Below, piece by piece: positions 50,805-51,677 of a stretch of 64,000 nucleotides of DNA (within the stretch, counting starts at the first letter, position 1; each line of letters opens with the position of its first letter). Both the position numbers and the translations under genes were made by a program. The DNA comes from Defluviitaleaceae bacterium. Lineage in GTDB: Bacteria; Bacillota; Clostridia; Lachnospirales; WRAX01. The notes beneath the pieces are model-generated. The model ran no database searches. It saw only the letters and a list, made by a program, of their open reading frames with translations, and was not told the origin of the DNA. The stretch covers positions 28,484 to 92,483 of the forward strand of contig WRBK01000002.1 in assembly GCA_009784575.1 (NCBI GenBank). Reading direction: 5' to 3'.

Positions 50805-50833
50805 ATTATATAACCTTCACTAGCTTTTGTCAA
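50805..50833 (-). promoter_or_regulatory. Perfect consensus promoter TTGACA-17-TATAAT for rplJL
   Basis: Plus strand reads ATTATA 50805-50810 and TGTCAA 50828-50833. The spacer contains the stop codon of the DUF1266-like gene. Confidence 0.7.
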
Positions 50834-51677
50834 GCGTTTTTAGCGGAAACTTTTGATAAGGGCTTTTCTTATTTCTTAATAGATGATGTATAGTGTCGCC
50901 ATAATCACCAATTTTCTTAGCATCACCAGCCATAATGCCATGCCCGATAAAATATGCAGCCAAAAACTGCCGCCAATCTGTATAGGAGGCATATGCCTGC
51001 TTGCCAGCAGAAACCATATACCCTCTTGCCGCTGCATCATCAATATGACCCGCAACAGCCGCCATCTTGGCAACATAGCCAACACGCCCTAAATCCCATG
51101 CGCAAAAGTCATCTAACTTAGATAGCTCCTCCATGGAAAATCCATAAACGCCAAGGGTTCGTATGGCTTGCTCATAACCCTTTATACCGCCATTTATGCG
51201 GCTTAGTAAAAGCGACGAAGTAATGCCGTGGAAAGTCTTGTTGGCATCTTCTGCCCCACTGAGATAATACAAAAAAGCATCCATGTCATTGTTGGCATTA
51301 TTCGTAAGCGAATCCCAAAGTTGCAAAAAATTTTCAGGCAAATTAAGGTCAAGCAGAATATCTTCTTTTAGTGGAGAAAAAATCCCGCGCACCACCTCAT
51401 ATTGAGACTTTGTAATGAGTTCATTAAAAATCTCAGCGATAACATGGCTGTCTGCTTTAGCTTTAGAAAGTCTTTCTAGCATAGCCATGCTAGTACCCCA
51501 GTCCGTAATGCCCCAATCCTTTGCAAGAATCTGCTTAGCTTGGTCTGCTTTGTTCTTGGATAAACTAAAGGACATTGCGGCCTTATGACCTTCGTGCTGA
51601 ATAGTCAGGATGGCATTTGCAACAAGTGCCCGCGTATCATTTTGAGATAATTTGTTGCCACGACCAAAAATACCCAT
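50820..51677 (-). CDS. DUF1266-like protein of unknown function inserted between rplA and rplJ
   Basis: 285 aa, no TM or signal peptide. The C-terminal half (FCAWDLGRVGYVAKMAAVAGHIDDAAARGYM..YTDWRQFLAAYFIG) resembles the DUF1266 W-D-x-x-R region as I recall it. Its ATG is 2 nt after the rplA stop. Confidence 0.65.
   Translation of the reverse strand: MGIFGRGNKLSQNDTRALVANAILTIQHEGHKAAMSFSLSKNKADQAKQILAKDWGITDWGTSMAMLERLSKAKADSHVIAEIFNELITKSQYEVVRGIFSPLKEDILLDLNLPENFLQLWDSLTNNANNDMDAFLYYLSGAEDANKTFHGITSSLLLSRINGGIKGYEQAIRTLGVYGFSMEELSKLDDFCAWDLGRVGYVAKMAAVAGHIDDAAARGYMVSAGKQAYASYTDWRQFLAAYFIGHGIMAGDAKKIGDYGDTIHHLLRNKKSPYQKFPLKTLDKS

Follow-up and report, generated by a model that had tools for sequence, protein, structure and literature searches.

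A DUF1266 gene lodged between rplA and rplJ in a termite-gut clade of Defluviitaleaceae

DUF1266 is a widespread protein family without known function or solved fold. In a window of 64,000 nucleotides from a Defluviitaleaceae bacterium (the whole stretch of DNA analysed here; contig WRBK01000002.1, positions 28,484 to 92,483), a gene of this family occupies the gap between rplA and rplJ, and the question is what holds it there and whether it serves the ribosome. The initial annotation, which had taken secE-nusG-rplK-rplA-rplJ-rplL to be among the most conserved gene strings in bacteria, described a 285-aa open reading frame abutting rplA and expected from its place a role in the ribosome, in translation or in a chaperone-linked process. 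The coordinates and descriptions all hold; the deduced role is not supported. The locus comprises the following features, all on the minus strand.

49.6-53.7 kb, minus strand: secE, nusG, rplK, rplA, the DUF1266 ORF, rplJ and rplL, in this order on the strand
52447..52872, minus strand: rplK (L11), first cistron of the operon; an ORF that, as a tblastn query, finds L11 in all relatives
51680..52378, minus strand: rplA (L1), 232 aa; PF00687 match of 238 bits, strong Shine-Dalgarno (SD) sequence AGGAGG, TAA stop at 51680-51682
51675..51682, minus strand: junction TAA-TT-ATG (rplA stop, 2 nt, DUF1266 start), read from the sequence; without SD and without stable RNA structure
50820..51677, minus strand: DUF1266 gene, probable third cistron, 285 aa, ATG start, TAG stop at 50820-50822; PF06889 match of 80 bits
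50805..50833, minus strand: rplJ promoter TTGACA-17-TATAAT, -35 box at 50833-50828 and -10 box at 50810-50805; 12/12 match
50683..50811, minus strand: L10 leader, autoregulatory attenuator of rplJ-rplL; Rfam RF00557, 54.7 bits for a gathering score of 44
50037..50660, minus strand: rplJ (L10); PF00466 match of 94 bits, SD GGAGG
49634..50011, minus strand: rplL (L7/L12); an ORF that, as a tblastn query, is matched in relatives

In the scan of 5.5 kb, only TTGACA-17-TATAAT matched a promoter at 12 of 12 positions, and the TAG stop of the DUF1266 gene falls within its 17-nt spacer, as had been noticed at the outset. Between rplA and this promoter, no terminator-like site was found on the minus strand except a weak internal match (50970-50956). 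The DUF1266 gene fills the space from the rplA stop to the rplJ promoter, with no nucleotides to spare. The rplA gene itself is single copy in these genomes, that of the window included. Moreover, the order rplA-DUF1266-rplJ recurs in independent assemblies, so the arrangement is neither a one-off nor an assembly artefact. The rplJ promoter is kept at the orthologous loci, and in three of them (G001, L026 and L030) the TGA stop of the DUF1266 gene falls inside the -35 hexamer (T-TGA-CA).

The assignment to DUF1266 is firm. The protein matches PF06889 with 80.1 bits (E 3e-22, for a cut-off of 27) over model positions 2-174 of 175, corresponding to residues 51-278, and all 55 members of an alignment reaching down to 22% identity match the same model. 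In this alignment, A193, D195, Y232 and G245 are invariant, and W55, E184, W194, G197, R198 and W235 are found in at least 90% of the sequences. The AlphaFold2 model built on it (pLDDT 93.1, pTM 0.91) is entirely helical. The protein has neither a signal peptide nor a membrane segment; it is a soluble, cytoplasmic, all-alpha domain. A Foldseek search with the model retrieved no relative in PDB or BFVD (best PDB match E 0.2, TM < 0.3), and a sequence profile search of the PDB with the orthologues gave nothing significant (E >= 0.5), no solved DUF1266 structure existing for comparison. PADLOC and PHROGs returned no match, and NCBIfam only a sub-threshold match to a hypothetical-protein model. 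Among the literature mentions of DUF1266, no title or abstract concerns function, and nothing functional was found in a literature search for ybeU, ybeR and hscC. Since several residues are nearly invariant across distant members, W55, E184, W194, D195, R198, Y232 and W235 may form a conserved binding or catalytic site. From conservation alone, the protein would be a binding module (adaptor or sensor) or an enzymatic one, with a role that is not specific to the ribosome.

Then, we searched for relatives of the gene. Searched with a profile, 1.84 billion cluster representatives yielded 1,072 relatives at E <= 0.001, only a handful of which are in the range of orthologues. A word-indexed search of 5.8 billion proteins identified 19 orthologues with 45-72% identity, which align over their full length with 47 invariant columns. 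Their N-terminus (MG-x-FGR...RAL), next to the rplA stop, is conserved. Among the 45 orthologue pairs, pN ranges over 0.14-0.43 and pS, which is saturated, over 0.68-0.85, pN being much the lower in every pair; dN/dS is 0.07-0.28 where dS is estimable. Judged by these substitution patterns, the ORF encodes a genuine protein and is under purifying selection. The expected conservation of the ORF in relatives is thus borne out.

The orthologues are confined to one clade of termite-gut Defluviitaleaceae. Their records include "Defluviitaleaceae bacterium Emb289P1bin130", "Emb289P1bin53" and "Clostridiales bacterium Pmx449_bin8", all of them termite-gut metagenome-assembled genomes (MAGs), the Emb289 records coming from the P1 gut compartment of Embiratermes neotenicus (PMC7024585). 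The organisms carrying a DUF1266 gene next to rplA are uncultured. In a NusG+L11+L1 tree of 46 loci, the loci bearing the DUF1266 gene form one clade inside the family (SH-aLRT 95). The GC content of the gene (42.7%) is close to that of the genome (42.6%), and the genomes of this lineage encode two to three DUF1266 paralogues each. The next closest relatives after the orthologues, paralogues of about 31% identity (P0023 and P0024), do not lie beside rplA. The gene would thus be a resident paralogue, captured once in the ancestor of this small clade and landing precisely in the interval from the rplA stop codon to the rplJ -35 box. A second DUF1266 protein of the window's genome, encoded at C3:31781-33364 (L002:874-2457), is 527 aa long, secreted, and carries an N-terminal Cu_amine_oxidN1 domain; in this organism the DUF1266 domain therefore also works extracellularly.

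How the captured gene would be expressed is suggested by its 5' end. The minus-strand junction reads ...GGC TAA TT ATG GGT..., i.e. the DUF1266 ATG lies 2 nt past the rplA TAA, and GGAG, GAGG and AGGA are all absent from the 20 nt upstream of this ATG in the window. In some orthologues an AGGA is found, just 2 nt before the ATG and within the last rplA codons. We read 11 independent contexts (window, G001, G002, G009, L026/L027, L028/L029, L030, L070, L071, L072/L073), and wherever the upstream sequence is present the start lies at -1 (TAATG), +2, +4 or +5 nt from the rplA stop, so that the abutment noted in the window extends to the relatives. No stable RNA structure masks the DUF1266 start codon (junction folding z-score +1.36). 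This conserved abutment fits termination-reinitiation or translational coupling. Termination-reinitiation of the UAAUG type couples cistrons in the ribosomal-protein operons of Escherichia coli. The present junction, where coupling is putative, resembles these coupled cistrons in its overlap or gap of at most 5 nt, its lack of SD and its placement on the same strand and in the same operon; it differs in that the downstream cistron does not encode a ribosomal protein. Without a promoter or SD of its own, and with a start at most 5 nt from the rplA stop, the gene would share the rplK-rplA transcript as its third cistron, and most of its translation would come from ribosomes that have finished rplA immediately before, through termination-reinitiation or translational coupling. 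With such coupled translation, DUF1266 dosage would follow the synthesis of L1 and of ribosomes, as well as any autogenous control exerted by L1.

In order to place this insertion in context, we surveyed the neighbourhood of rplA in one genome from each of the 31 other families of the order. In 24 of them, rplA and rplJ show the canonical spacing, with 143-379 nt between the tblastn matches. Six have no rplJ within the fetched sequence, one of these being limited by the contig end. Only the remaining family (G052) presents an insert, of 1.8 kb, between rplA and rplJ; this is the one other interruption found by the survey that the initial annotation had called for. The inserted gene (L065, positions 3289-4755) encodes a 488-aa secreted protein with Cu_amine_oxidN1 and transglutaminase-like domains. 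A second independent DUF1266 insertion at rplA-rplJ was considered for this genome and rejected on account of the transglutaminase-like nature of the insert. Like the gene of the window, the G052 insert is a non-ribosomal gene placed after rplA and ahead of the rplJ promoter with its L10 leader. The DUF1266 gene, for its part, is conserved in its clade, lacks expression signals of its own and abuts both the rplA stop and the rplJ -35 box.

Within the Defluviitaleaceae, the string is much less constant than had been assumed. None of the eight DUF1266-less genomes of the family has rplJ downstream of rplA, and in five of these eight rplJ was found on a different contig, at a distance of several kb from the contig ends. 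Furthermore, rplK and rplA lie more than 200 nt apart in 9 of the 14 family loci; the spacing goes up to 2,256 nt and accommodates as many as three extra ORFs, versus 22-152 nt in all 31 other families. Co-oriented extra ORFs in this spacer lie at the following positions.

L021 (G002), 2954-5060: co-oriented with the operon, three paralogous membrane proteins
L022 (G009), 2518-2886: co-oriented with the operon
L026, 3570-4256: co-oriented with the operon
L030, 3876-4187: further spacer ORF, a YbjQ_1 protein
L032, L034 and L036: further spacer ORFs

A 107-aa ORF visibly similar to the YbjQ_1 protein of L030 was also seen in G013. The spacer ORFs elsewhere in the family have no Pfam match. With a string this fluid in the Defluviitaleaceae, the case that its inserts must serve the ribosome is weakened.

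In six contexts the DUF1266 gene is followed by rplJ-rplL with promoter and L10 leader. In four others (G002, G009, L071 and L072), other genes are found downstream of it (a hairpin and unrelated genes, DUF5680, an Rce1-like protein, and Spo0A), and the linkage to rplA thus outlasts the linkage to rplJ. No rplJ was detected anywhere in the MAGs G002 (73% complete) and G009 (91% complete), whose rplA-DUF1266 contigs extend well past the gene; their rplJ-rplL genes have presumably moved to an unassembled region. In the NusG+L11+L1 tree, these two genomes nest separately, each beside sisters that bear rplJ. Given this separate nesting and the single clade of bearers, the simplest history would be a single capture into the spacer between rplA and rplJ, after which rplJ-rplL left twice, independently. 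Most of the metagenomic contexts were found through the DUF1266 protein itself, with four genomes as the unbiased sample, so losses of the gene within the clade would be under-sampled.

What has kept the pair together is, in our opinion, probably the dependence of the gene on rplA for its expression, the DUF1266 gene being a passenger locked to this ribosomal cistron. This dependence would have held the pair in place while rplJ-rplL and the rplK-rplA spacer rearranged around it, and it suffices to explain the persistence of the pair without any physical interaction. If the link is regulatory only, the locus is a neat case of a signal-less gene locked to a ribosomal cistron, and the "invariant" rplKAJL string appears as a recurrent landing site, notably fluid in the Defluviitaleaceae. 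The clade offers an unusually clean natural experiment, in which the production of one paralogue has been tied firmly to that of L1, one well-understood protein, and the tie has outlasted local rearrangements.

Codon usage was then compared with that of the ribosomal-protein genes. The codon adaptation index (CAI) of the DUF1266 gene relative to these genes is 0.624, i.e. the 64th percentile of 1,345 long ORFs, versus above the 98.6th percentile for rplK, rplA, rplJ and rplL and the 89th for nusG. With a reference set excluding the operon, the gene still has the lowest CAI of the operon, and this is roughly so in three orthologous loci. Because this codon usage is average, the level of the protein is probably lower than that of the ribosomal proteins. 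The codon bias of the genome is modest (median CAI 0.61, ribosomal proteins 0.71-0.77), and an average CAI is therefore weak evidence on abundance. In addition, L1 of the DUF1266 clade presents a single clade-specific residue, located at a variable column. The proposal of expression at ribosomal-protein level, and hence of a ribosomal, translational or chaperone-linked role, finds no confirmation in either comparison, and a ribosomal function of the DUF1266 protein is not supported.

Among the alternatives to a passenger gene, the one that survives best makes the protein a dedicated partner of L1 or its stalk, i.e. an L1 escort, an assembly factor or a modulator of L1 autogenous repression, encoded on the same mRNA so that both proteins meet co-translationally. 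If the protein acted on L1, one would likewise expect its gene to stay beside rplA in all clade members seen, even after rearrangements, as it does. The strict closeness of the start codon to the rplA stop (at most 5 nt in all 11 contexts), the survival of the pair through two independent losses of rplJ adjacency and variable upstream insertions, and the location of the paralogues away from rplA all agree with such a partnership. So does a parallel from E. coli, whose YbeR and YbeU are DUF1266 proteins according to annotation, as stated at the outset. In the K-12 annotation there are two 4-nt gene overlaps next to hscC, one of ybeR with djlB and the other of ybeU with djlC. The coupling of a DUF1266 gene to a partner gene in both E. 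coli and the window is suggestive of complex formation, and by this analogy the domain may act in protein complexes. The E. coli proteins share with that of the window the AWD-x-GR / Y-x-x-W core and a gene that abuts its neighbour translationally. The differences are that the coupled gene is the upstream rplA here and a downstream J-protein gene there, and that the window protein is longer (285 vs. 235 aa), some 50 additional residues separating its N-terminal helices from its core.

Several observations argue against a partnership with L1. The L1 of the clade carries only the single clade-specific residue mentioned above, at a variable position; the codon usage of the DUF1266 gene is unlike that of ribosomal-protein genes; the domain is also secreted or membrane-anchored in the same lineage; and expression dependence on rplA accounts for the linkage without physical interaction. 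Furthermore, the sole similarity to a ribosomal protein vanishes under profile-profile comparison. This similarity was to L6, the chains of which were the only ones matched by the orthologue profile in the PDB (E 0.5), and it concerned residues 101-176 (window 51107-51234). A tblastn and shuffle test against the N-terminal domain of the genome's own L6 gave a nominal pairwise p of about 8e-5. The comparison with 30 L6 sequences gave a probability of 2.8% (P 0.016, 34 columns), the stretch is one continuous helix in the AlphaFold2 model, and the likeness was rejected as due to chance. On balance, we regard a dedicated partnership with L1 or its stalk as possible but unlikely.

In eukaryotes, some ribosomal proteins have dedicated chaperones, such as Acl4 for uL4 and Syo1 for uL18/uL5, and we know of no dedicated chaperone of that kind in bacteria. 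The DUF1266 protein resembles Acl4 and Syo1 in being an all-alpha protein whose synthesis is tied to one ribosomal protein; there is no sequence or fold relationship with them, and the analogy is functional only. The stronger form of the idea, in which the DUF1266 protein would be a dedicated L1 partner (escort, anti-repressor or L1-stalk protein) and the first bacterial counterpart of these eukaryotic chaperones, seems to us quite doubtful. If true, an L1 partnership would give the whole DUF1266 family, YbeR and YbeU included, a client-specific adaptor function. A functional link, if there is one, would point to one particular partner that is easy to test.

It is very unlikely that the protein is instead an accessory (adaptor or client) of an Hsp70/J-protein system, acting with DnaK or with an extra Hsp70 paralogue. 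This idea draws on the overlapping ybeR-djlB and ybeU-djlC pairs beside hscC and on the several Hsp70-like genes of the window's genome, four of which are in tandem on contig C3. However, the locus is without an adjoining hscC-type module or J-protein gene, its neighbours being rplA and rplJ, and tblastn searches with DjlB and DjlC gave no match in the 81%-complete genome at E <= 1e-3. Moreover, the Hsp70 cluster sits on a different contig, and the similarity to YbeU is limited to a core of 53 residues, with 21% identity.

The tandem Hsp70-like genes form an unusual cluster in their own right. They lie outside the window, at C3:60645-70221, all on one strand, and encode proteins of 699, 546, 517 and 561 aa. 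A 629-aa ORF is interleaved with them and a 914-aa ORF precedes them, and the cluster is separate from the probable dnaK on contig C1.

Finally, that there is no separate protein, the ORF being an untranslated relic or part of an L1-DUF1266 fusion made by a programmed -1 frameshift, is extremely improbable: the ORF does lie in the -1 frame relative to rplA in most loci (spacings -1, +2 and +5 are all 2 modulo 3), but the strong purifying selection and the conserved Met-Gly-x-Phe-Gly-Arg start point to a protein of its own, and the frameshift fusion was rejected because the DUF1266 frame stays open for just 5 codons before the ATG (290 vs. 285 aa), the 3' end of rplA has no X-XXY-YYZ slippery heptamer, and the spacing varies, one orthologue at +4 being in a different frame.

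At its 3' end, the gene of the window departs slightly from its orthologues. A 1-nt difference in the region 50820-50835 shifts out of frame the TGA with which the orthologues end (...K-S-A-TGA). As a consequence, the ORF of the window reads through the -35 box and gains four residues, ending T-L-D-K-S before the TAG in the promoter spacer.
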